Sequence record: OM386662.1
Length of the DNA stretch: 64,000 nucleotides
Source of the DNA: Escherichia phage vB_EcoM_ESCO47
Direction: 5' to 3' (one strand)
The notes under the pieces: model-generated
The model's input: only the letters and a program-made list of their open reading frames with translations
Databases searched by the model: none
What the model was told of the DNA's origin: nothing
Position numbers and translations under genes: made by a program
Shown: one piece after another, positions 2,840-50,060 of the stretch
How positions within the stretch are numbered: the stretch's first letter is position 1
Layout: each line of letters starts with the position of its first letter

Positions 2840-3391
2840 TTATCTGAAGATATTTATCACTCTTTTAAAAAATGATTTTCGTTCTTTTTCTGGCCATGCC
2901 GGGAATTCGCCACCTAAATGCTCATGCTTTTCATAAAGAGCAAAGAAACGTTTAAGATTCTGGTAATAGAATTTCTCGTCTTTATTTGCAACAGAAGCTT
3001 CAACCAAATTAGACAAGACTTGGTACTCTTTAAAAAGTTGATCAAGTTTTCTATTTCTAAGAGTCAAACGTTTATAACACTCATCCTCTTTCCAGCCGCC
3101 ATCTATCCAAAGATCAAACTCGCCAGGCTCATCAAATGTTGCACCCTGTAAGCTTCCTATACTATCAATTTTAACGGGTTGTTTATCGAAGGTCCAAGCT
3201 AGTTTACCGCGATGATCTTCTTCGTAAATCCAATCTTGAATGCGTTCGTCAAAAACAATCGCATATCCTTCTTTATGATCAAGTGGTTTTTTAGTTGTAG
3301 AATGCGCCGGGAGCCCAATGCCTTTAACAGGTTTATATGTTTCTTCTTTATAAAATTCTTTAGTGTCAAAATAGTAGTGGTAAATTTTCAT
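2840..3391 (-). CDS. 38: gp38, T4-type long tail fibre assembly chaperone
   Basis: 183 aa (same as T4 gp38), MKIYHYYFDTKEFYKEE N-terminus; directly downstream of gene 37. Confidence 0.85.
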   Translation of the reverse strand: MKIYHYYFDTKEFYKEETYKPVKGIGLPAHSTTKKPLDHKEGYAIVFDERIQDWIYEEDHRGKLAWTFDKQPVKIDSIGSLQGATFDEPGEFDLWIDGGWKEDECYKRLTLRNRKLDQLFKEYQVLSNLVEASVANKDEKFYYQNLKRFFALYEKHEHLGGEFPAWPEKERKSFFKRVINIFR

Positions 3392-3422
3392 TATTATAAA
3401 GGGCCCGAAGGCCCTCTCCTTA
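3389..3422 (-). promoter_or_regulatory. split ribosome-binding site of gene 38: SD, UUCG hairpin, 9 nt, AUG
   Basis: mRNA reads UAA GGAGA GGGCC-UUCG-GGCCC UUUAUAAUA AUG; hairpin 3401-3414. Confidence 0.65.
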
Positions 3423-8550: not shown

Positions 8551-11500
8551 TTATTCAATCCATTCGAATTTAACGGTTTTATTAATTGGATCTGGAACAA
8601 TTCTAACATTACCTATACGCAAGAAGTCACGAATAGTAAGGTTACCAATTACCGCGTTATCTGAAGGCAGAGCACCGACATCTGACGGTGAAGGTGGGTT
8701 ACCACTATCAAACACCATAGCAAAAGACGTCCAAGCATCTTTATTTCTCTGCCAGGTTCTAGTGTAACGTATACTACCGCCATTAGCTCCTGTCGGATAA
8801 CAAATCCAATCTTGATAAAGAGAATTTAAACTATTACCGAATTGGGTTAATGTGCCTGGATATTTAATTTCTTGAACACGATTACCTGCAGCATCCCTAG
8901 TCCAATAACCTGGGAACTGAGTATATGTCGCTTCATCATTAATATCGATAGACCAGAATCCAACCGTGCCTTCGGTAGGTTTACGAGTATAAAGATCAGC
9001 CGTTTTAGAGCCACTAGAAATGATTCGACTGTTTACAGTTAAACCACCTGAAGTAATAGTAGCACCATTTGTTATCTGTACACCGTTATCTAATCTAACC
9101 AGACCTGTAGCATTATTGATAGTCAATGGGCGTAATGAGTTAAATGTCCCAGACTGATTACCAGAATCGGTTAAAACGAAATATGAACTATTTCCGGCGT
9201 TATGAATCATAAAGCCGTAGTTACCATTAATCGCTCTAAATGCTATAGGAGATCGAGAAACAATTTCACCATTAGACGAAATAGAACCGGTAGAAGTGGT
9301 CGTACCTGTCACAGTCAAATTACCTGTTGCATTAAGGTTTACGGATGTCAATCCACCATTAACGTTCATCTGGATATTGCCAAGATTATTTCTCTGAGTA
9401 TAGAAATGATGGCTTGTTTCATCACTAACTTCAAATACTGTAGCTCGTGTTTTATCAGCACCGCTGCCAAACGTATTACCAAAAACTCGAATAGAAACGT
9501 TTTCTGTTGAACTTGTGGCGTACTGATTTCCCTTTTCGAAAATTAGACGCGGAGCAGTATCGGTATTAGCAATAGTTAATGTACTATTTGCGGATACTGA
9601 ACCACCAAAGAATCCGGTGCTTGTAGATACTAAAGGAGCACTCAGGTTCAATTGTTTAGTCAGACTTAAAGAACCATTAACTGTCTGGTCGATATCTCTA
9701 CGGATAAACTGAAGAGAATCCAGGCCATCTAACAACTCAGTATCAGCGGCTTTTGCTTTCAATGGTAAATAGTTAGCAAGCACACGGTTAAATTCATAAG
9801 GAGAAATAGCATAACTATTTTTCTCGTATAAGTTTAGATCCTGAGTATTGCCTTGTGTATCATTACCAACAAAAGTGATAGAACCGGATGAAGTTTTAAC
9901 GAATCCGCGAATCGCCGTAGTAGCAGCCCATGTTGGTTCATTCTGGACAATCCATTTTAAATTCTTAGGAGATACAGCGGTATTAGCTGAAGTACCAGTA
10001 ACTGTTTCTGCTTGGGTGGCGACTTTAATTACACCTTCAGAAGTTTCAGTGGACTTAGTCCCTAAAAGCTTTTTAGGAGTAATAAGAACATCATCTAAAG
10101 TTCCTGCATTAGATTCTGCCTGGGTCGCTACGCGAAGTGTACCACGTTGTGTTTCATTTGCTTTAGAAATATCGAGAGTATAATGGTTCCACAAGGTTCC
10201 TTCTTCAATAAGTCCGGAATCAGAATTAACACCAGTACGGTCAGAAGAATCAAAATGAGTTTTAACTTTCAAGGGAGTTGAAATTCGAGTATCATCAGTC
10301 CCAGCATCAAATTCAACTTGAGTTGCAATCTCTGCAATACCACTTAAAGCTTCTGTAGCTTTCCTGTCATTTAACGTTTTAGGCGTTACCGCACGAGTAT
10401 AATCAGTCCCAGCATCAGTCTCTGCTTGCGTAGCAATTTCAATTAAACCAATACGTCCGTCTGTAGAAGTTTTCTTATGCAGAGTTTCGGGGGTGACAAC
10501 AGCATGAGAATAACCAGCTTGAGATTGACCTGCAATTACTTCACTTTCAAGAGCCAGAATAGTAGCACCCTGTTGAGTAGAAGTCGCTTTATACTGATCG
10601 AGAGCTTTAGGCGAAATAGTTAACGTAGTTGTGTCTTTATTATAAACGTTAGTGCCTGCAGTCCCACGAGTAGCAGCAGGAGTAGCTGAAGCAGTCGATA
10701 CATATTTAACTATACCTGATAGAGTTTCTGAACCCTGACGTGCCTGTAATTTCTTAGGAGTGATAATAGTTGTATCATCGGTCCCAGCATCAGTCTCTGC
10801 TTGAGTAGCTATTTCTGCTAAACCGCGACGAGTTTCAGTCGCTGTACGCTCATTTAATTTCTTAGGTGTAACAATTGTATCATCAACAAATGTTGCAGTA
10901 GAATCCTGATTAACTTGAGCGGTAGTAGCAGTTTTTGCAATACCACGTCGAGTTTCAGTCGCTGTACGATTAGCTAATGTCTCTGGGGTAATTGCAACTT
11001 CTTTAGCCGGAGAATTTTCTAAATCAACATTTGCTTGTGCTTGGTTAGCCAAAGCAATAACACCTACACGAGCACGAGTAGTATCATTTAATGAATCAAC
11101 ACGTTCTACAGTCGGTATGTTTTGTTGAACAATCCAATAGTTGTTTCTACCGGCTTCTTCGATATAAGCTAATTCAATTACAGGAACATAAGAAGTAGTC
11201 CCATTAAATTCTAACTCTGTAACGGAAACCCAATCGGCATCAGGTGGATATTCTGAACGTTTAGGGAACTGAAGAAGTTCTACACTACTATAAATTGTAT
11301 CGGTACTTGCGGCTTTAATTTTAACCGTTTGACCTTTACGCATATAGTTTAATGAAATTTTAACAGTGTCTCCACTCAAAATTCCGGTAGGAAGAGTAAG
11401 ATTCACAGTTGATACTGAAGCATTGTTAGCACCAAACACGAGAATTTCTTCGTTAGGGCTAATTACGGTGTCAGTTCGTACAATGCGCAGTCGTGATTTC

Positions 11501-12396
11501 TGGTCACCTTCCCATACTCTCCACAAACTAGATGCTGCATCAAAAATAAAAAGAGCATCAGCAAAATTACGACCTTCAGCGATATGTGTCCCAACTTCAC
11601 GGATAGAAGTCGTATCATCAAATGTTTTAACAATTGTATGATACAAAGGGTTTAATTTATCCAAATCGACGAGATTAATTACGTCACCGTTATTAGCGTT
11701 GCGTGGCAATGTAATATTAATAGGAGCTGCACTGGTAAAACGACGAATAATAAAATCATTAGCTTGCGCCTGATAAGGTGCCGCTGGAGTTACTATAGTA
11801 GATTTGTTACCATAATCAACAAGATACATGTGCCATAAACGATTGCTGAAAACTAAAACAATCTGAGATTTAGGGTGAGTCATTAAAACCGAACGAACCT
11901 GTTCGCCTTTAAAGTTCACAATACTCTGAACTGAAGCGTTGATTTGCACTTTAACTGTGCCTGGTTTGCCACCAATATCCGCTAAAACGATTGTATCACC
12001 ATCAACAGGAGAGCTAGGCAAAGTGAAGTCCATGTCATTCCCGGCGGCTGTATTAACAGAAATCGATTCACCTGATGCTAATTGATATGACCCAGTAGAA
12101 ACGGTTATCCACTGTGCATCTGTACGAACTGCACGCCACAGACCTAAATTGAAATTACCTGCCGGAGAAGGAATATCATTAATTGCTTGATATAAGCGGT
12201 TATCATAAAGAACAACAAACCCGCGCACGTATCCGCGTGTATTACTATAATTCTGTACGGTGTTTTCTTGTACCAGGAAGTCAACGTTTACGCCATCAGT
12301 ACCAACTGTACGGTCGGCTAATGCTACGTTAACAATCTTGTCGCCACCGGCGTCCAGTCCGTCTTCGGCTCTGAACTTACGTTTGATGTCGGCCAT
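8551..12396 (-). CDS. 34: gp34, long tail fibre proximal subunit
   Basis: 1281 aa, internal roughly 40-aa repeats (..ATQAETDAGTDDT..TPKKL..), late promoter upstream, divergent from rnh. Confidence 0.9.
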   Translation of the reverse strand: MADIKRKFRAEDGLDAGGDKIVNVALADRTVGTDGVNVDFLVQENTVQNYSNTRGYVRGFVVLYDNRLYQAINDIPSPAGNFNLGLWRAVRTDAQWITVSTGSYQLASGESISVNTAAGNDMDFTLPSSPVDGDTIVLADIGGKPGTVKVQINASVQSIVNFKGEQVRSVLMTHPKSQIVLVFSNRLWHMYLVDYGNKSTIVTPAAPYQAQANDFIIRRFTSAAPINITLPRNANNGDVINLVDLDKLNPLYHTIVKTFDDTTSIREVGTHIAEGRNFADALFIFDAASSLWRVWEGDQKSRLRIVRTDTVISPNEEILVFGANNASVSTVNLTLPTGILSGDTVKISLNYMRKGQTVKIKAASTDTIYSSVELLQFPKRSEYPPDADWVSVTELEFNGTTSYVPVIELAYIEEAGRNNYWIVQQNIPTVERVDSLNDTTRARVGVIALANQAQANVDLENSPAKEVAITPETLANRTATETRRGIAKTATTAQVNQDSTATFVDDTIVTPKKLNERTATETRRGLAEIATQAETDAGTDDTTIITPKKLQARQGSETLSGIVKYVSTASATPAATRGTAGTNVYNKDTTTLTISPKALDQYKATSTQQGATILALESEVIAGQSQAGYSHAVVTPETLHKKTSTDGRIGLIEIATQAETDAGTDYTRAVTPKTLNDRKATEALSGIAEIATQVEFDAGTDDTRISTPLKVKTHFDSSDRTGVNSDSGLIEEGTLWNHYTLDISKANETQRGTLRVATQAESNAGTLDDVLITPKKLLGTKSTETSEGVIKVATQAETVTGTSANTAVSPKNLKWIVQNEPTWAATTAIRGFVKTSSGSITFVGNDTQGNTQDLNLYEKNSYAISPYEFNRVLANYLPLKAKAADTELLDGLDSLQFIRRDIDQTVNGSLSLTKQLNLSAPLVSTSTGFFGGSVSANSTLTIANTDTAPRLIFEKGNQYATSSTENVSIRVFGNTFGSGADKTRATVFEVSDETSHHFYTQRNNLGNIQMNVNGGLTSVNLNATGNLTVTGTTTSTGSISSNGEIVSRSPIAFRAINGNYGFMIHNAGNSSYFVLTDSGNQSGTFNSLRPLTINNATGLVRLDNGVQITNGATITSGGLTVNSRIISSGSKTADLYTRKPTEGTVGFWSIDINDEATYTQFPGYWTRDAAGNRVQEIKYPGTLTQFGNSLNSLYQDWICYPTGANGGSIRYTRTWQRNKDAWTSFAMVFDSGNPPSPSDVGALPSDNAVIGNLTIRDFLRIGNVRIVPDPINKTVKFEWIE

Positions 12397-15684: not shown

Positions 15685-15706
15685 GGGAGACTTCGGTCTC
15701 CCTTTT
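15685..15706 (+). terminator. intrinsic terminator after gene 32
   Basis: GGGAGAC-UUCG-GUCUCCC followed by UUUU. Confidence 0.7.
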
Positions 15707-18268: not shown

Positions 18269-20524
18269 ATGCAAGTAACTAAGAGCAGTGGTGTATCCCA
18301 AAATTTTGATGCACAGAAAATTATTCAAGTCTTAACTTGGCAATGTGAAGGAACACAAATTGACCCATATGAATTGTACGAAGAAATTAAGACCCATCTT
18401 GTCGACGGGATGAGCACCAAAGATATCCAGAAGATTTGTATTAAAGTTGCAGCTAACTCGATTTCTGTCGAAGAACCTGATTATCAGTATGTCGCTGCCA
18501 AAGGGCTAATGTTTGCACTTCGTAAAGATGTATATGGGCAGTTTGAACCGCCTGCTTTTATCGACCATATTTCTTATTGTGTTAATGAAGGCAAATATGA
18601 TCCTGAGTTGTTGTCTAGATATTCTGCAGAAGAAATCATTTATCTTGATTCTCGGATTAAACATGAGCGAGATTTTGATCTGACTTATGCTGGTGCTATG
18701 CAGCTTAAAGAAAAATACCTGGTTAAAGATAAAACAACTGGTAAGATTTATGAAACTCCACAGTTTGCTATCATGGCTATCGGTATGGCCTTACATCAAG
18801 ACGAAACTCATGACCGTTTGAAACATATTATTCGTTTTTATGATGCCGTTTCTACTCATCAAGTTTCATTGCCTACTCCAATTATGGCAGGTGCTCGTAC
18901 TCCGACTAGACAGTTTTCCAGCTGTGTAGTTATTGAATCCGGTGATTCGTTGAAGTCTATTAACAAAACGTCAGCATCAATTATCGAATATATTTCCAAA
19001 CGAGCTGGTATTGGTATTAACGTTGGTATGCTTCGCGCTGAAGGTTCTAAAATTGGCATGGGTGAAGTGCGTCATACAGGTGTTATTCCGTTCTGGAAAC
19101 ATTTCCAAACAGCAGTAAAATCTTGTTCTCAAGGTGGTATTCGTGGTGGTGCTGCAACCGCATATTATCCGATGTGGCATTTGGAAGTAGAGAACCTGTT
19201 AGTTCTTAAAAATAACAAAGGTGTTGACGAAAACCGTATCCGTCATATGGACTATGGAATTCAGATTAATGACCTTATGATGGAACGCCTTGGTAAAAAT
19301 GATTATATTACTTTATTTAGCCCTCACGAAATGTCCGGCGAATTGTATTACTCGTTCTTTGAAGACCAAGATAAGTTCCGTGAGCTTTATGAAAAAGCAG
19401 AAAAAGACCCGGCAATCAGAAAGAAACGAATCAAAGCATTAGAACTTTTTGAATTGTTTATGACTGAACGTTCAGGTACTGCTCGAATTTATCCACAGTT
19501 TGTTGATAACACGAATAACTACACTCCGTTTATTCGTGAAAAAGCTCCAATTCGTCAGAGTAACTTATGTTGTGAAATCGCTATTCCGACTAATGATGTT
19601 AACAGTCCTGACGCTGAAATTGGTTTATGCACGTTATCTGCTTTTGTATTAGATAAATTTGATTGGCAAGACCAAGATAAAATTAATGAACTTGCTGAAG
19701 TACAAGTACGTGCACTTGATAACCTGTTAGACTATCAAGATTATCCGGTTCCAGAAGCTTTAAAAGCTAAAAAGCGTCGAAATCTCGGTGTCGGTGTTAC
19801 TAACTATGCAGCTTGGTTAGCTTCTAACTTTGCCTCATATGAAGATGCTAACGATTTGACCCACGAATTATTTGAGAGATTACAGTATGGACTCATTAAA
19901 GCTTCAATCAAGTTGGCCAAAGAAAAAGGACCTTGCGAGTATTATTCAGACACTAAATGGTCTCGAGGCGAATTACCTATCGACTGGTACAATAAAAAGA
20001 TTGACCAAATCGCAGCTCCAAAATACGTTTGTGACTGGTCGGGGCTACGTGAAGACCTTAAGCTCTTTGGCATTCGCAACAGCACATTATCAGCTCTTAT
20101 GCCATGTGAATCAAGCAGCCAGGTTTCCAACTCTACAAACGGTATCGAGCCTCCACGTGGTCCGGTAAGTATTAAAGAATCTAAAGAAGGTAATTTCCGC
20201 CAGGTAGTTCCTAATATCGAACACAACATTGGTCTTTATGACTACGCCTGGAAACTTGCTAAGAAAGGTAATAAACCTTATTTGACTCAAGTTGCTATTA
20301 TGTTGAAATGGGTATGTCAATCGGCTTCAGCCAATACGTACTACGACCCAGAGAATTACGAGAAAGGTAAAGTGCCAATGTCTGTAATGCTTGACGATTT
20401 GCTTTACTTCTGGTACTTCGGCGGTAAAAACCTCTACTATCATAATACTCGCGATGGTTCTGGTACTGACGACTATGAACTAGAAACTCCAAAAGTTGAT
20501 GATTGTTCAGCTTGTAAGCTTTAA
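18269..20524 (+). CDS. nrdA: ribonucleotide reductase large subunit
   Basis: 751 aa; class Ia RNR alpha motifs (..NLCCEI.., C-terminal CxxC tail). Confidence 0.95.
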   Translation: MQVTKSSGVSQNFDAQKIIQVLTWQCEGTQIDPYELYEEIKTHLVDGMSTKDIQKICIKVAANSISVEEPDYQYVAAKGLMFALRKDVYGQFEPPAFIDHISYCVNEGKYDPELLSRYSAEEIIYLDSRIKHERDFDLTYAGAMQLKEKYLVKDKTTGKIYETPQFAIMAIGMALHQDETHDRLKHIIRFYDAVSTHQVSLPTPIMAGARTPTRQFSSCVVIESGDSLKSINKTSASIIEYISKRAGIGINVGMLRAEGSKIGMGEVRHTGVIPFWKHFQTAVKSCSQGGIRGGAATAYYPMWHLEVENLLVLKNNKGVDENRIRHMDYGIQINDLMMERLGKNDYITLFSPHEMSGELYYSFFEDQDKFRELYEKAEKDPAIRKKRIKALELFELFMTERSGTARIYPQFVDNTNNYTPFIREKAPIRQSNLCCEIAIPTNDVNSPDAEIGLCTLSAFVLDKFDWQDQDKINELAEVQVRALDNLLDYQDYPVPEALKAKKRRNLGVGVTNYAAWLASNFASYEDANDLTHELFERLQYGLIKASIKLAKEKGPCEYYSDTKWSRGELPIDWYNKKIDQIAAPKYVCDWSGLREDLKLFGIRNSTLSALMPCESSSQVSNSTNGIEPPRGPVSIKESKEGNFRQVVPNIEHNIGLYDYAWKLAKKGNKPYLTQVAIMLKWVCQSASANTYYDPENYEKGKVPMSVMLDDLLYFWYFGGKNLYYHNTRDGSGTDDYELETPKVDDCSACKL

Positions 20525-20575
20525 GAATTTTAATTATAATTGACTCATGGATGAGTCACTATTGAGAGAATATAA

Positions 20576-21754
20576 ATGAGTACAGTTTTTAATACACAAC
20601 AAGTTGATGTTTTGAACGAACCTATGTTCTTCGGTTCAGGTCTCGGTCTTGCACGTTACGATATTCAACGACATAAAGTTTTTGAAGAGCTTATCGAAAA
20701 GCAGCTCTCGTTCTTTTGGCGTCCCGAGGAAGTAAACTTGATGTTGGATTCAGCCCAGTTTAATAAGCTTCCACAGTTCCAACAGGACATCTTTACCAAC
20801 AACCTTAAGTATCAATCATTATTAGATTCTATCCAAGGCAGAGCACCATCTGCGGTACTTATGTCATTGCTTTCAGACCCTTCATTAGATACATGGGTCG
20901 CTACATGGACTTTCAGTGAAACTATTCACTCTCGTTCATATACTCATATTATGCGAAATCTTTATACAGATCCATCGAAAGTATTTGATGAGATTGTATT
21001 AGATGACGCAATTATGAAGCGTGCCGAATCTATCGGACGATATTATGATGATGTTCTGGTTAAAACTCGAGCTTGGGAAAATTCTAAAGAATTTGTAGAA
21101 CAAGCTAAAGAATCTCCTGATGCCGACCTTCGTTTAAACCAAGCTATTAAACAAGAGTCTGAAGCTAAACGAGACCTAATGAAATCTCTTTATCTTTGTT
21201 TGCATGTCATCAATGCATTGGAAGCTATTCGTTTTTACGTGTCTTTTGCTTGTACTTTCAACTTCCATAAGAATATGGAAATTATGGAAGGCAATGCGAA
21301 GATTATGAAGTTCATTGCTCGTGATGAACAGCTCCACCTCAAGGGCACTCAATATATTATTCGTGCTTTACAAGACGGTGAAGACGGTGATGAATGGGTC
21401 AAAATTGCTCAAGAGTGTGAACAAGAAGCAGTTGATATTTTCATGGAAGTTAACGCTCAAGAAAAAGAATGGGCTGAACACTTGTTTAAAGATGGTGCTC
21501 TTCCAGGCCTAAATGTTAAAATCCTAAGTGAATTTGTAGATTATCTAACCGTGTCTCGTATGCGTAGTTGCGGTCTACCATGTCCTCTTAAAGACATATC
21601 AACTCGTCATCCTATTCCATGGATTCGTGAGTATTTGAACTCTGATTTGGTTCAAGCTGCACCACAAGAAGTTGAGATCAGTTCTTATCTTGTCGCTCAA
21701 ATTGATAATGACGTCAACCAAGATGTAATAAATTCATACAAAAAATATTTCTAA
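20576..21754 (+). CDS. nrdB: ribonucleotide reductase small subunit, uninterrupted
   Basis: 392 aa contiguous; di-iron ligand-like ExxH regions. Confidence 0.95.
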   Translation: MSTVFNTQQVDVLNEPMFFGSGLGLARYDIQRHKVFEELIEKQLSFFWRPEEVNLMLDSAQFNKLPQFQQDIFTNNLKYQSLLDSIQGRAPSAVLMSLLSDPSLDTWVATWTFSETIHSRSYTHIMRNLYTDPSKVFDEIVLDDAIMKRAESIGRYYDDVLVKTRAWENSKEFVEQAKESPDADLRLNQAIKQESEAKRDLMKSLYLCLHVINALEAIRFYVSFACTFNFHKNMEIMEGNAKIMKFIARDEQLHLKGTQYIIRALQDGEDGDEWVKIAQECEQEAVDIFMEVNAQEKEWAEHLFKDGALPGLNVKILSEFVDYLTVSRMRSCGLPCPLKDISTRHPIPWIREYLNSDLVQAAPQEVEISSYLVAQIDNDVNQDVINSYKKYF

Positions 21755-21784
21755 GGAAGGGACTTAGGTCCCTCTTATATTATG
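21753..21784 (+). promoter_or_regulatory. candidate split RBS of denA: SD, hairpin, 8 nt, AUG
   Basis: AAGGA 21753-21757, hairpin AGGGAC-UUAG-GUCCCU 21758-21773, CUUAUAUU, AUG 21782. Confidence 0.45.
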
Positions 21785-22192
21785 AAAGATATCGCCGCAG
21801 AATATTCTTTTATTAAATATACAGAGTTAGAATTATTGGAAGACGCGACAATTAAAACGGTTGAAGTCCCTAATAAGAAAAACGTTATCTATGCGATTGT
21901 AATAGATGATGAACTCATGTATATTGGTAAAACTAAGAATCTAAAGAAACGCATTAACTATTATCGAACTGCTATAAATCGAAAAGACCAGACTTCAGAC
22001 TCTAGAAAATCTTTAATGATTTTAGACGCGTTAATGCAAGGTCTAAAGGTCGAATTCTGGGCCCGCCAATGTTTCGACCTATCGGTCACCAACGAACTCG
22101 GTTCTATGACCATCGCAACGATGGACCTTGAAGAGCCACTGTTTATTAAGAAGTTCAACCCGCCTTGGAATATCCAATACAAGAAAAAGTAG
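21782..22192 (+). CDS. denA: endonuclease II (GIY-YIG)
   Basis: 136 aa (T4 length); IYAIV..YIGKT..YY GIY-YIG motif. Confidence 0.9.
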   Translation: MKDIAAEYSFIKYTELELLEDATIKTVEVPNKKNVIYAIVIDDELMYIGKTKNLKKRINYYRTAINRKDQTSDSRKSLMILDALMQGLKVEFWARQCFDLSVTNELGSMTIATMDLEEPLFIKKFNPPWNIQYKKK

Positions 22193-22221
22193 TTTACATA
22201 CCACATGGACTGTGGTATAAT
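22192..22221 (+). promoter_or_regulatory. early promoter for rnlA
   Basis: GTTTAC 22192-22197, TGTGGTATAAT 22216-22221. Confidence 0.65.
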
Positions 22222-22238
22222 TTTTAAAAATCAAATGA

Positions 22239-23372
<1,134 letters not shown>

Positions 23373-29628: not shown

Positions 29629-29808
29629 ATGGCAAAACAAGCTAAAGCAAAGAAAGCAGTTGAAAAGAAAGTTGATGGTACCTCTAAACGCGCTGGATAC
29701 AAGCGTGGGTCGAACTCTCGTATTAATCAAACCGTTGAGAAGATCATGCGCAGAGCACGTGCAGTTCTTCGAGATGATGCTTCTCGTTTTGGAAAGGTTG
29801 TTGCATAA
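29629..29808 (+). CDS. small basic protein (59 aa)
   Basis: ATG with AAGAGA SD, Lys/Arg-rich, followed immediately by a UUCG hairpin terminator; below the ORF-track size cutoff. Confidence 0.45.
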   Translation: MAKQAKAKKAVEKKVDGTSKRAGYKRGSNSRINQTVEKIMRRARAVLRDDASRFGKVVA

Positions 29809-29813
29809 TTTTA

Positions 29814-29835
29814 GGGAGACTTCGGTCTCCCTTTT
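29814..29835 (+). terminator. intrinsic terminator (identical hairpin to 15685)
   Basis: GGGAGAC-UUCG-GUCUCCC plus UUUU. Confidence 0.7.
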
Positions 29836-42729: not shown

Positions 42730-43356
42730 ATGTACAAATATACGTTTACCGTACGTTTAGGCGATAAAGAAGTGAATTGTAGAGCCTTTACTTTAAAAGA
42801 ATATTTAGGACTTATAGGTGCGCGGGCTACCGGTACTATTGAATCAGCAGTGAACAATATTATCACTAATTGCTCTAACGCTAAAAACTTGACTAAACAA
42901 GAAGCCGAGTTATTGTTGGTAAATTTGTGGGCACATTCGTTAGGTGAAGTGAATCAAGAACACACCTGGAATTGTTCCTGTGGGCATTCATTTCAAGTCT
43001 ATATGAATTTATTGCACACTCAATTGGATGAACAGGCCGATCCCTGGTATTCGTTTAGTGGTATTAAAATTAAGTTCCGTCAACCTAAATTATTTGACGA
43101 TAAAAATATCGCATTAATGATTGCTTCATGTATTGAGGCTGTTTTTGTCAATGGAGAGTCCATCCCTGTTGAAGATTTAACTGAAGCGGAAATAAACGAC
43201 CTTTACGGCCTTATAACAGAAGATGACATGATCAATATTAAAAATCTTTTGGTATCGCCATCAATTTATCTGGCAACCCCTATTAAATGTCCCAAATGTG
43301 GGGCGTCACACGTTCACACAATACGAGGCCTCAAAGAATTCTTTGAGTTACTATAA
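42730..43356 (+). CDS. 26: gp26, baseplate hub subunit
   Basis: 208 aa (T4 length); TATAAATA plus GGAG upstream. Confidence 0.8.
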   Translation: MYKYTFTVRLGDKEVNCRAFTLKEYLGLIGARATGTIESAVNNIITNCSNAKNLTKQEAELLLVNLWAHSLGEVNQEHTWNCSCGHSFQVYMNLLHTQLDEQADPWYSFSGIKIKFRQPKLFDDKNIALMIASCIEAVFVNGESIPVEDLTEAEINDLYGLITEDDMINIKNLLVSPSIYLATPIKCPKCGASHVHTIRGLKEFFELL

Positions 43357-43358
43357 TG
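43325..43358 (+). promoter_or_regulatory. split RBS of gene 25: SD, hairpin, 8 nt, AUG
   Basis: GAGG 43325-43328, hairpin CUCAAAG-AAUU-CUUUGAG 43330-43347, UUACUAUA, AUG 43356. Confidence 0.6.
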
Positions 43359-50025: not shown

Positions 50026-50060
50026 AAAAAAAAAAGGGACCGTAAGGTCCCTTTTTTTTT
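50026..50060. terminator. bidirectional terminator between convergent rnlB and gene 24
   Basis: A10 GGGACC-GUAA-GGUCCC T9. Confidence 0.75.

Follow-up and report, generated by a model that had tools for sequence, protein, structure and literature searches.

The denA gene of Escherichia phage vB_EcoM_ESCO47 (OM386662.1) is probably translated from a split ('accommodated') initiation region, possibly doubling as a weak attenuator, in which a hairpin would be looped out between the Shine–Dalgarno (SD) sequence and the start codon. At the junction between nrdB and denA the SD is distant from the start codon, a hairpin fills the gap, no alternative SD or start is present, and the arrangement is conserved with compensatory changes. 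From these comparisons we infer that denA translation requires, or is raised by, the hairpin; denA would be a third, apparently undescribed, example beside genes 38 and 25.

The stretch of DNA that was analysed (64,000 nt, hereafter the window) carries both genes on the + strand. The ORF list gives nrdB (20576..21754) as an intron-less frame of 392 aa, which every matching record annotates as the small subunit of ribonucleotide reductase, and denA (21782..22192) as a frame of 136 aa. The latter matches the endonuclease II/DenA family of PHROGs (phrog_1111, E = 5.6e-62), its product is 76% identical to T4 DenA, and we take it to be the gene of a host-DNA-degrading nuclease. The junction reads tattTCTAAGGAAGGGACTTAGGTCCCTCTTATATTATGaaagat. 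The nrdB stop codon TAA (21752–21754) overlaps the denA SD AAGGA (21753–21757), which as UAAGGA is complementary to the 3' end of 16S rRNA (computed duplex energy −5.9 kcal/mol). The 5' arm AGGGAC (21758–21763), the loop UUAG (TTAG in the DNA, 21764–21767) and the 3' arm GUCCCU (21768–21773) follow, the arms being supported by sequence, fold and covariation. A pyrimidine-rich spacer of 8 nt, CUUAUAUU (21774–21781; read as CTTATATT), contains no SD-like sequence and leads from the hairpin to the denA AUG (21782–21784). The order AAGGA, hairpin, 8 nt and AUG, as put forward in an earlier note on this DNA, is thus exact by direct reading of the sequence.

In the linear sequence, the SD lies 24 nt upstream of the AUG; removal of the 16-nt hairpin leaves a spacing of 1 + 8 = 9 nt. 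The gap between the nrdB stop and the denA AUG likewise shrinks from 27 nt to 11 nt when the hairpin is folded, and because the SD overlaps the nrdB stop, a ribosome terminating there sits on the SD. In the mechanism that we propose, denA would be transcribed within the nrdB message, and its sole SD, UAAGGA, would be too distant (24 nt) for normal initiation. The intervening 16 nt would fold into a GC-rich hairpin of 6 bp, so that a 30S subunit, either newly arrived or just finished with nrdB, would meet SD and AUG about 8–9 nt apart and could initiate.

The isolated hairpin folds at −9.3 kcal/mol, with 4 G–C pairs in its 6-bp stem. For a 32-nt fragment the z score is −1.93, 15 of 200 shuffled sequences folding equally well, and for a 76-nt context around the hairpin it is −0.99. 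Single-sequence fold statistics do not distinguish the hairpin from chance; the comparative data alone do. We compared 23 distinct nrdB–denA junctions from about 14 genera, T4 included. Across these leaders, 96.4% of stem cells are paired, and 24 cells carry changes on both sides, affecting 4 of the 6 pairs. The covariation score is 0.469 versus 0.168 in shuffles, a value that none of 500 shuffles reaches, and the signal is lost in slid stem registers. Column pair 17/24 occurs as A–U, G–C and C–G, and column pair 13/28 as A–U, U–A, G–C and C–G; in a set of 16 sequences, double changes are present in 5 of 7 pairs. The conservation with compensatory changes that the earlier note had named as a check is therefore found, across about 14 genera, and judging from this covariation the denA hairpin is under selection. 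The loop is UUCG in 18 of the 23 leaders, with GCAA in T4, GUAA in L049, UUUG in L051 and UUAG, like the window, in L074. UNCG and GNRA loops are found only on the sense strand, which suggests an element acting at the RNA level on the + strand. A permissive Rfam search of 21500–22300 returned no known family, only chance-level snoRNA and sRNA matches (E of at least 0.46, far below the gathering scores). The exact window leader has no match in IMG/VR, and the closest of 669 phage records is 92.3% identical to it over 91 nt.

The position of the SD is as constant as the stem. An AGG lies 0–4 nt upstream of the stem in 23 of 23 distinct leaders, including variants with TAAAGG or TAAAAGG (L016, L021, L070, L074 and L075) and one, L078, in which it is displaced from the stop codon (TAAATTAGGAG). 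Since the AGG is kept when it is off the stop codon, it is not a by-product of that codon. The bases after the GG vary (GGAA in the window; GGAC, GGAU, GGUA, GGUG and GGCG in others). None of the hairpin-to-AUG tails of the leaders examined contains AGG, GGA or GAG. In 16 homologues these tails measure 6–10 nt, and in the linear sequence the last G of AAGG stands 24–29 nt before the AUG; with the hairpin excised this distance becomes 6–14 nt, with 8–10 nt in 13 of the 16 leaders and a mean of 9. The curators of Merlin and Mineola annotated ribosome-binding sites for neighbouring genes and none for denA, and a split site would explain why annotators see none. One point against such a site is the prediction that, in the short context of the window, the G's of the SD are mainly base-paired to the pyrimidine tail (probabilities of being unpaired 0.08 and 0.19); freeing the SD costs only 2.0 kcal/mol, versus −5.9 kcal/mol for its pairing with the anti-SD.

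The earlier note had likened the denA geometry to that of genes 38 and 25, and this match was obtained both within the window and against the T4 originals. On the − strand, the gene 37/38 junction (3389..3422) consists of UAAGGAG (3422–3416), the hairpin AGGGCC-UUCG-GGCCCU (3415–3400), 8 nt and an AUG (3391–3389); the product is a gp38-type tail-fibre assembly protein (phrog_105). Gene 25, for the baseplate wedge subunit gp25 (phrog_261), has on the + strand (43325..43358) GAGG (43325–43328), a single c, the hairpin CUCAAAG-AAUU-CUUUGAG (43330–43347), 8 nt and an AUG (43356–43358). With the hairpins excised, the last G of the SD is 9 nt from the AUG in denA, 9–10 nt in gene 38 and 9 nt in gene 25. 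The T4 leaders of genes 38 and 25 were also read directly, and the gene 38 spacing is 9–10 nt in T4 and window alike. That the layout is used at least three times in the window was borne out by a strict pattern scan (SD, at most 3 nt, perfect hairpin, 3–11 nt, ATG), which gave 3 matches, denA and genes 38 and 25, among about 83 gene starts, versus 0.06 expected (Poisson P about 4e-5). Two further candidates were rejected. The ATG of an apparent fourth split site at 11883 (−) is internal to the 1281-aa ORF of gene 34 (8551–12396), and a match at 29806 (−) proved to be a UUCG terminator of the + strand, read in reverse, that follows a 59-aa ORF.

The window has 10 sense-strand tetraloop hairpins; only those of denA and gene 38 lie within 8 nt before a start codon, and only these two are preceded by UAAGGA(G). 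Tetraloop hairpins farther from a gene leave that gene with its own SD downstream, and terminator-like hairpins carry a run of 3–5 U's at the stem or 1 nt after it. It counts against a split site that near-identical hairpins are apparent terminators elsewhere in the window. The window gene 38 leader and the Karamvirus denA leader have 24 consecutive nt in common. A survey of gene 38 leaders, intended as a positive control, yielded one extra IMG/VR locus and NBG1 only, and these are too few for covariation statistics.

Relatives that lack the hairpin, or have it elsewhere, provide natural variants. In L076, denA overlaps the nrdB stop (ATGA); in L085–L090 and L095 it overlaps the nrdA.1 stop in the same way, and L097 has a canonical SD before denA. 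In Krischvirus, the hairpin is 28 nt away and a separate GAGGAAAGGA stands 4 nt before the AUG. We consider that these natural variants agree with a split site in the leaders that do have the hairpin. Two details were counted against it: UAAGG precedes the Krischvirus hairpin despite the downstream SD, and L076 indicates that the hairpin is dispensable where stop and start overlap.

The hairpin might instead be nothing but an intrinsic (Rho-independent) terminator or attenuator of the nrdA–nrdB transcript, the AAGGA being idle and read-through transcripts being translated poorly or otherwise. It has the GC-rich stem, stable tetraloop and U-rich tail of such elements, is picked up by a simple terminator scan, and bears the label 'terminator' in the records of G53, fPS-90, Merlin, NBG1, G2469 and WFL6982. 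However, the gene 38 hairpin, an initiation enhancer according to the review discussed below, is called a 'terminator' by the same pipelines, so the label carries little weight. Good U-runs are present in T4 (A-UUUU-AUU), L006/L007 (UUUUUU) and CJ20 (UUUUU), but 3 or more U's directly follow the GC core in only about 7 of 16 lineages (by eye). The window tail CUUAUAUU has 5 U's in 8 nt with no run of 3 or more, unlike the terminator-like hairpins of the same phage. Overall, denA tails contain 3–6 U's in 8 nt versus 3–4 for genes 38 and 25.

Consensus scans of the stretch from the nrdB start to the denA AUG detected no promoter of the early, middle or late class. A dedicated denA promoter was rejected as a candidate: early, middle (MotA-box) and late (TATAAATA) scans in nrdB gave two weak, non-conserved TGCT matches. 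With no recognisable promoter of its own, denA must be transcribed through the hairpin. In T4 infection, DenA protein and RNA are both detected according to a supplement of PMC9697503, which, given that no promoter consensus is found, indicates that the hairpin is read through; DenA is made although no recognisable promoter lies downstream of the hairpin. The same supplement classes denA RNA as 'middle' and nrdB RNA as 'early', in favour of termination. The next promoter in the consensus scans comes after denA, so by these scans the hairpin is not the terminus of a transcription unit. Immediately downstream of the denA stop, 22193..22221 (+) matches the early-promoter consensus TTTACA-17 nt-TATAAT at 11 of 12 positions, with an embedded stem-loop (22198–22218) whose 8-bp stem is followed by AAUUUUUAAA. 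This segment is likely the 3' boundary of the nrdB–denA transcription unit; it resembles the 'PeSL' motifs, composites of terminator and promoter, that T4-like phages carry (PMC4122927). A pure terminator also leaves unexplained the invariant AGG upstream, the lack of an SD downstream and the narrow hairpin-to-AUG distance, and we regard it as unlikely. Partial termination is plausible in T4, L006/L007, CJ20 and phiP4-3, given the real U-runs of their leaders.

The hairpin could also be mainly an mRNA-stability or processing element, either a 3' exonuclease barrier for nrdB mRNA or a 5' cap for processed denA mRNA, with denA translated purely by termination–reinitiation and the SD position incidental. 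Tuerk and colleagues reportedly observed in 1988 that the intercistronic regions of T4 often contain C(UUCG)G hairpins, which speaks for this reading. So does the ATGA stop/start overlap at denA in the outgroups and L076, which makes coupling an ancestral or alternative mode. In addition, the SD of T4, Karamvirus and Bragavirus contains GGAG, the RegB cleavage motif (specificity as given in PMC2988021). Against this, a stability element need not sit 6–10 nt from an AUG, or adjoin an AGG, in every lineage. A RegB site as a conserved feature was rejected, GGAG being present in a minority of denA leaders only (the window has GGAA). Ribosomes reinitiate inefficiently across 27 nt when no SD assists them, and with the hairpin folded the reinitiation model turns into the split site. 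We regard this reading, too, as unlikely. In some lineages the same hairpin may also serve for weak termination or attenuation, or protect the 3' end of nrdB mRNA.

A quite different possibility is that denA starts farther upstream, at a GUG in the 5' arm as in the T4 reference, in which case the SD would adjoin the start codon, with the hairpin serving as coding sequence or as a brake on translation. T4 denA is indeed annotated as 435 nt from this GUG in AF158101.6 and MT984581.1, and an in-frame AUG occupies the equivalent position in JS98-type leaders. By contrast, 13 of 16 leaders, window included, lack an in-frame start codon in the interval from the nrdB stop to the AUG, 2 have in-frame stops there, and in 8 of the 16 the offset from the nrdB stop to the AUG is not a multiple of 3. 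This segment changes by base-pair covariation without codon conservation, and the T4 GUG shares the last G of GGAG, leaving zero SD spacing. The N-terminus MK(D/E)IA is conserved, and the T4 structure 2WSH, the published residue numbering (G49, R57, E118) and the original record X04140 all use the AUG start. The GUG, which is not conserved and conflicts with 2WSH and the published numbering, was therefore rejected as highly improbable; the finding argues that the T4 reference start at this GUG, with its product of 144 aa, is an error and that the 136-aa AUG form is correct.

Read-through of the nrdB stop promoted by the hairpin, yielding a NrdB–DenA fusion, was ruled out: in the window and T4 the denA AUG is in frame with nrdB without an intervening stop and the hairpin begins 3 nt past the stop codon, but the two frames agree in only 8 of 16 leaders, one of which (R3_1) has an in-frame TAG in between, and UAA is a strong stop codon.

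If a split site is correct, denA is a third, widely conserved case of a rare bacterial mode of initiation, with an mRNA hairpin looped out between SD and start codon, and one that is present in T4. It would also caution that, where phage genes are tightly joined, what automated annotation calls a 'terminator' can be an initiation element. The denA nuclease is toxic when expressed, and how its synthesis is set relative to nrdB would therefore be of some practical interest. The 23 natural variants, one of them hairpin-less, provide a ready-made design for a mutational test. More tentatively, and with considerable doubt on our part, Tevenvirinae could possess a reusable bifunctional cassette for gene junctions, made up of a stop-overlapping UAAGGAG, a tetraloop hairpin, 7–8 nt and an AUG. 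The upstream message would then be partly terminated or stabilised, while on read-through transcripts refolding of the hairpin would hand the just-terminated ribosome to the next AUG, a hairpin-mediated termination–reinitiation shunt. Such a cassette would hold NrdB and the toxic nuclease DenA at a fixed ratio, and the near-identical 37/38 and nrdB/denA copies in one genome would reflect cassette copying, not convergence.

Our literature search returned nothing on the denA leader, a terminator after nrdB or T4 3'-end maps, although an older mention is possible, and the only sites of this kind named in the review by Uzan and Miller (2010) are those of genes 38 and 25. For these two genes, mutation, lacZ fusions and DMS probing have shown that the structures enhance initiation, the gene 38 hairpin cutting the spacing from 22 nt to 5 nt, as summarised in the same review (PMC3014915). 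The T4 gene 38 layout is near-identical to that of denA, with a UAA stop overlapping UAAGGAG, a GC tetraloop hairpin of 6 bp, 7–8 A/U-rich nt and AUGAAA: compare UAAGGAG-AGGGGC-UUCG-GCCCCU-UCUAAAU-AUG for T4 gene 38 with UAAGGAG-UGGGCC-GCAA-GGCCCA-UUUUAUU-AUG for T4 denA. The function at gene 38 is known by experiment, whereas denA is likened to it from sequence. Gene 38 is late and denA prereplicative; denA tails are more pyrimidine- and U-rich than those of gene 38, with the SD in some phages predicted to be partly paired with the tail; and the UUAG loop of the window denA hairpin is not an extra-stable tetraloop, unlike that of gene 38.

Gene 25 resembles denA in having its SD 27 nt upstream, a hairpin of 16–18 nt and a tail of 8 nt. 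Its effective spacing is 9 nt by the present count and 11 nt by that of Malys and Nivinskas 2009, as cited in PMC3014915. It is kept in close T-even phages and not in distant T4-like phages, again like denA. Gene 25 differs in its SD (GAGG) and in its A/U-rich hairpin (−6.4 kcal/mol), which is embedded in the coding sequence of gene 26, whose stop overlaps the gene 25 AUG, whereas the denA hairpin is GC-rich, non-coding and terminator-like. In T4-like genomes, intrinsic terminators whose hairpins are of the C(UUCG)G or GNRA type have stems and loops like those of denA, and GGGAGAC-UUCG-GUCUCCC, the Winklervirus denA spacer, recurs four times in this window in terminator-like form. These copies have a U-run of 3–5, no AGG upstream, and a position far from the next gene or before the SD of that gene; the denA copy, by contrast, follows an AGG, lacks a U-run in the window and stands 8 nt before an AUG. 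Finally, ATGA coupling joins denA to the upstream gene in Tulanevirus, Biquartavirus, Angelvirus and L076, whereas in the window 27 nt of linear sequence, filled by an SD and a hairpin, separate the stop from the start.

The denA leader of the window comprises, all on the + strand, the nrdB stop codon (TAA, 21752-21754), an overlapping Shine-Dalgarno sequence (SD; AAGGA, 21753-21757), the hairpin AGGGAC-UUAG-GUCCCU (21758-21773), the tail CUUAUAUU (21774-21781) and the denA AUG (21782), matching in all details the layout of AAGGA, hairpin, 8 nt and AUG read from this stretch before. Five lines of evidence point to a role of the hairpin in translation initiation, in which it would bridge the gap between a distant SD and the AUG.

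The genes nrdA (18269-20524), nrdB (20576-21754), denA (21782-22192; phrog_1111, E = 5.6e-62) and rnlA/gene 63 (22248-23372), the others being taken from the ORF list, lie on the + strand in the same order as in T4. The closest records to this region are Mosigvirus phages (F31, 91% identity over 1 kb), while T4 is approximately 74% identical. Unlike in T4, nrdB has no intron and mobE is missing between nrdA and nrdB (20512-20575); the 51-nt gap between these genes contains a middle-promoter-like AAGCTTTAA...TATAAT, followed immediately 3' by the hairpin TGACTCATGGATGAGTCA (20541-20558).

In isolation, the denA-leader hairpin has a folding energy of -9.3 kcal/mol. Single-sequence fold statistics are unremarkable (z = -1.93 for a 32-mer and -0.99 for a 76-mer), and on these alone the hairpin could be a chance occurrence. 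The pyrimidine tail can pair weakly with the SD, whose G's are mostly paired in a structure prediction over 39 nt; releasing them has a computed cost of 2.0 kcal/mol versus -5.9 kcal/mol gained by SD:anti-SD pairing. Relative to the Mosigvirus consensus (C-GGGAC-UUCG-GUCCC-A), the window differs at 21758, 21766 and 21773: both stem-flanking bases are altered, converting a C·A mismatch into an A-U pair that extends the stem by one pair, and the loop reads UUAG instead of UUCG, with loss of the UNCG motif. This combination of A-U flank and UUAG loop occurs in no other record of the phage collection. The exact leader is absent from 669 phage records (top match 92.3% over 91 nt) and has no exact match in IMG/VR.

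Phage records in GenBank and contigs in IMG/VR (L-numbers below) supplied the nrdB-denA junctions for comparison. The order nrdB stop, AGG, GC-rich hairpin (4-7 bp), tail of approximately 6-10 nt and AUG is found in 23 distinct leaders from approximately 14 genera, including Tequatrovirus (with T4), Mosigvirus, Karamvirus, Dhakavirus, Moonvirus, Jiaodavirus, Gaprivervirus, Winklervirus, Marfavirus and Bragavirus. Stem sequences vary while complementarity is kept (GGGAC/GUCCC, UGGGCC/GGCCCA, AGGGGC/GCCCCU, CAGGGC/GCCCUG, GGGAGAC/GUCUCCC and others). In the 23-row alignment, 96.4% of cells are paired, and two-sided changes occur at 4 of the 6 stem pairs (24 cells). The covariation score is 0.469 compared to 0.168 ± 0.029 after shuffling, with none of 500 shuffles as high, so that the compensatory changes which the earlier note had proposed to look for in T4-like leaders do exist; slid registers all collapse, and a 16-row set gives the same outcome. 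The loop is UUCG in 18 of the 23 leaders, GCAA in T4, GUAA in L049, UUUG in L051 and UUAG in the window and L074. These UNCG and GNRA motifs are present on the sense strand only, and the object of selection is therefore the + strand RNA.

An AGG lies 0-4 nt upstream of the stem in every leader amid variable nucleotides, and is retained where it is displaced from the nrdB stop (TAAATTAGGAG in L078; TAAAGG and TAAAAGG variants), while SD-like triplets were found in none of the hairpin-to-AUG tails. Curators of the Merlin and Mineola records, who marked ribosome-binding sites gene by gene, gave denA none. The original T4 record (X04140) has two candidates, one 5' of the hairpin and one within it, the latter not conserved among relatives. 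Along the linear sequence, 24-29 nt separate the AUG from the last G of AAGG; leaving out the hairpin reduces this distance to 8-10 nt in 13 of the 16 leaders measured (mean 9; window 9). For genes 38 and 25, the corresponding values, read from T4 and the window, are 9-10 and 9 nt, bearing out the proposal that denA has the geometry of these two genes. In a strict pattern scan of the window, three genuine gene starts have the device, namely those of denA and of genes 25 and 38, in agreement with the suggestion of at least three uses; approximately 0.06 would be expected by chance among approximately 83 gene starts (P ~4e-5).

Natural variants agree with the prediction of a split site. In the T4-like contig L076 (IMGVR_UViG_2974786931_000001, approximately 340-405), whose relatives all have the hairpin, the entire 27-nt spacer comprising SD, hairpin and tail is gone, and the TGA stop of nrdB shares bases with the denA ATG (TTATGA). 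In more distant phages, denA is joined to nrdA.1 via an ATGA overlap, and denA of L097 has an ordinary SD. In Krischvirus (L026, 540-600; L082/L083), a different, hypothetical gene precedes denA, the hairpin is 28 nt from the AUG, and denA has its own SD GAGGAAAGGA 4 nt upstream of the start. The junction reads UAAUAAGG-U-GGGCGGGA-GAAA-UCCCGCC-UUUGUUGUG before this separate SD, so UAAGG ahead of such a hairpin is compatible with the presence of a normal SD.

The hairpin might instead be a terminator, as a simple terminator scan and the annotation of several genome records have it. That label does not discriminate, because the gene 38 hairpin in NBG1 carries it as well. Terminator-like hairpins of the window have 3-5 consecutive U's at the stem or 1 nt beyond it, such as the 18-mer GGGAGAC-UUCG-GUCUCCC with four identical copies (15685-15702 and 29814-29831, +; 7410-7393 and 51741-51724, -), which also forms the Winklervirus denA spacer. 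By contrast, the window denA tail has no U-run, and three or more U's directly follow the GC core in only about 7 of 16 lineages, as judged by eye. Moreover, scans of the stretch from the nrdB start to denA gave no consensus for an early, middle or late promoter, and the next promoter lies just 3' of the denA stop. Since T4 infection yields both RNA and protein of DenA (supplement of PMC9697503), transcription of denA must run through the hairpin, so efficient termination there is not possible. Some attenuation is plausible as a possible second function rather than as the main explanation, especially in T4 (A-UUUU-AUU), and is compatible with the T4 RNA classes, 'middle' for denA and 'early' for nrdB (PMC9697503). 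Immediately 3' of the denA stop, this downstream promoter is a strong, near-perfect early one (22193-22221, +; TTTACA-17 nt-TATAAT, the second hexamer being preceded by TG). Its hexamers enclose an 8-bp stem-loop (22198-22218), and the whole resembles the PeSL composite terminator/promoter motifs of T4-like phages (PMC4122927). Elsewhere, a perfect 15-bp hairpin flanked by A and U runs (A9GGGACC-GUAA-GGUCCCU9, 50027-50060) looks like a bidirectional terminator.

Two T4 records, one of them the T4 reference, annotate denA as 435 nt from a GUG (AF158101.6, 1318-1752; MT984581.1, 3477-3911) within the 5' arm, directly abutting GGAG. This is probably a mis-annotation, because the GUG is missing in 13 of 16 leaders, and the AUG (136 aa) is the start in X04140, in PDB 2WSH and in the published residue numbering. 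The lack of a conserved frame excludes stop-codon read-through from nrdB into denA.

UAAGGA(G) precedes only two of ten sense-strand tetraloop hairpins in the window, those of denA and gene 38, and only these lie at most 8 nt before a start codon; where hairpins are more distant, the gene has its own SD downstream. The 37/38 and nrdB/denA junction hairpins are near-identical (window 3400-3422, -; L103, 118-152; L008 and L037 denA leaders). The core GGGAC-UUCG-GUCCC is common to gene 38 of Mosigvirus NBG1 and Mosigvirus denA, and 24 consecutive nucleotides (UAAGGAGAGGGCCUUCGGGCCCUU) to the window gene 38 leader and the Karamvirus denA leader. This likeness could reflect convergence or copying between sites. 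Both junctions also share an SD that overlaps the upstream stop codon. At denA, a terminating ribosome would therefore occupy the SD and have to melt the 5' arm, and initiation may occur either de novo or by reinitiation aided by hairpin refolding.

Rfam has no family at the nrdB-denA junction. Full-text literature searches did not turn up an account of structure in the denA leader, although older key T4 sources fall outside their coverage and an earlier mention is possible. In the review of post-transcriptional control in T4, genes 38 and 25 are the only ones credited with such structures, which place the SD at a functional distance; destabilising mutations lower initiation, and the gene 25 case was confirmed with lacZ fusions and DMS probing (PMC3014915). 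Comparison across leaders gives good support to a putative split initiation region at denA. The finding, of modest interest to specialists, makes denA a well-supported candidate for a further member of the hairpin-bridged initiation regions known from genes 38 and 25.
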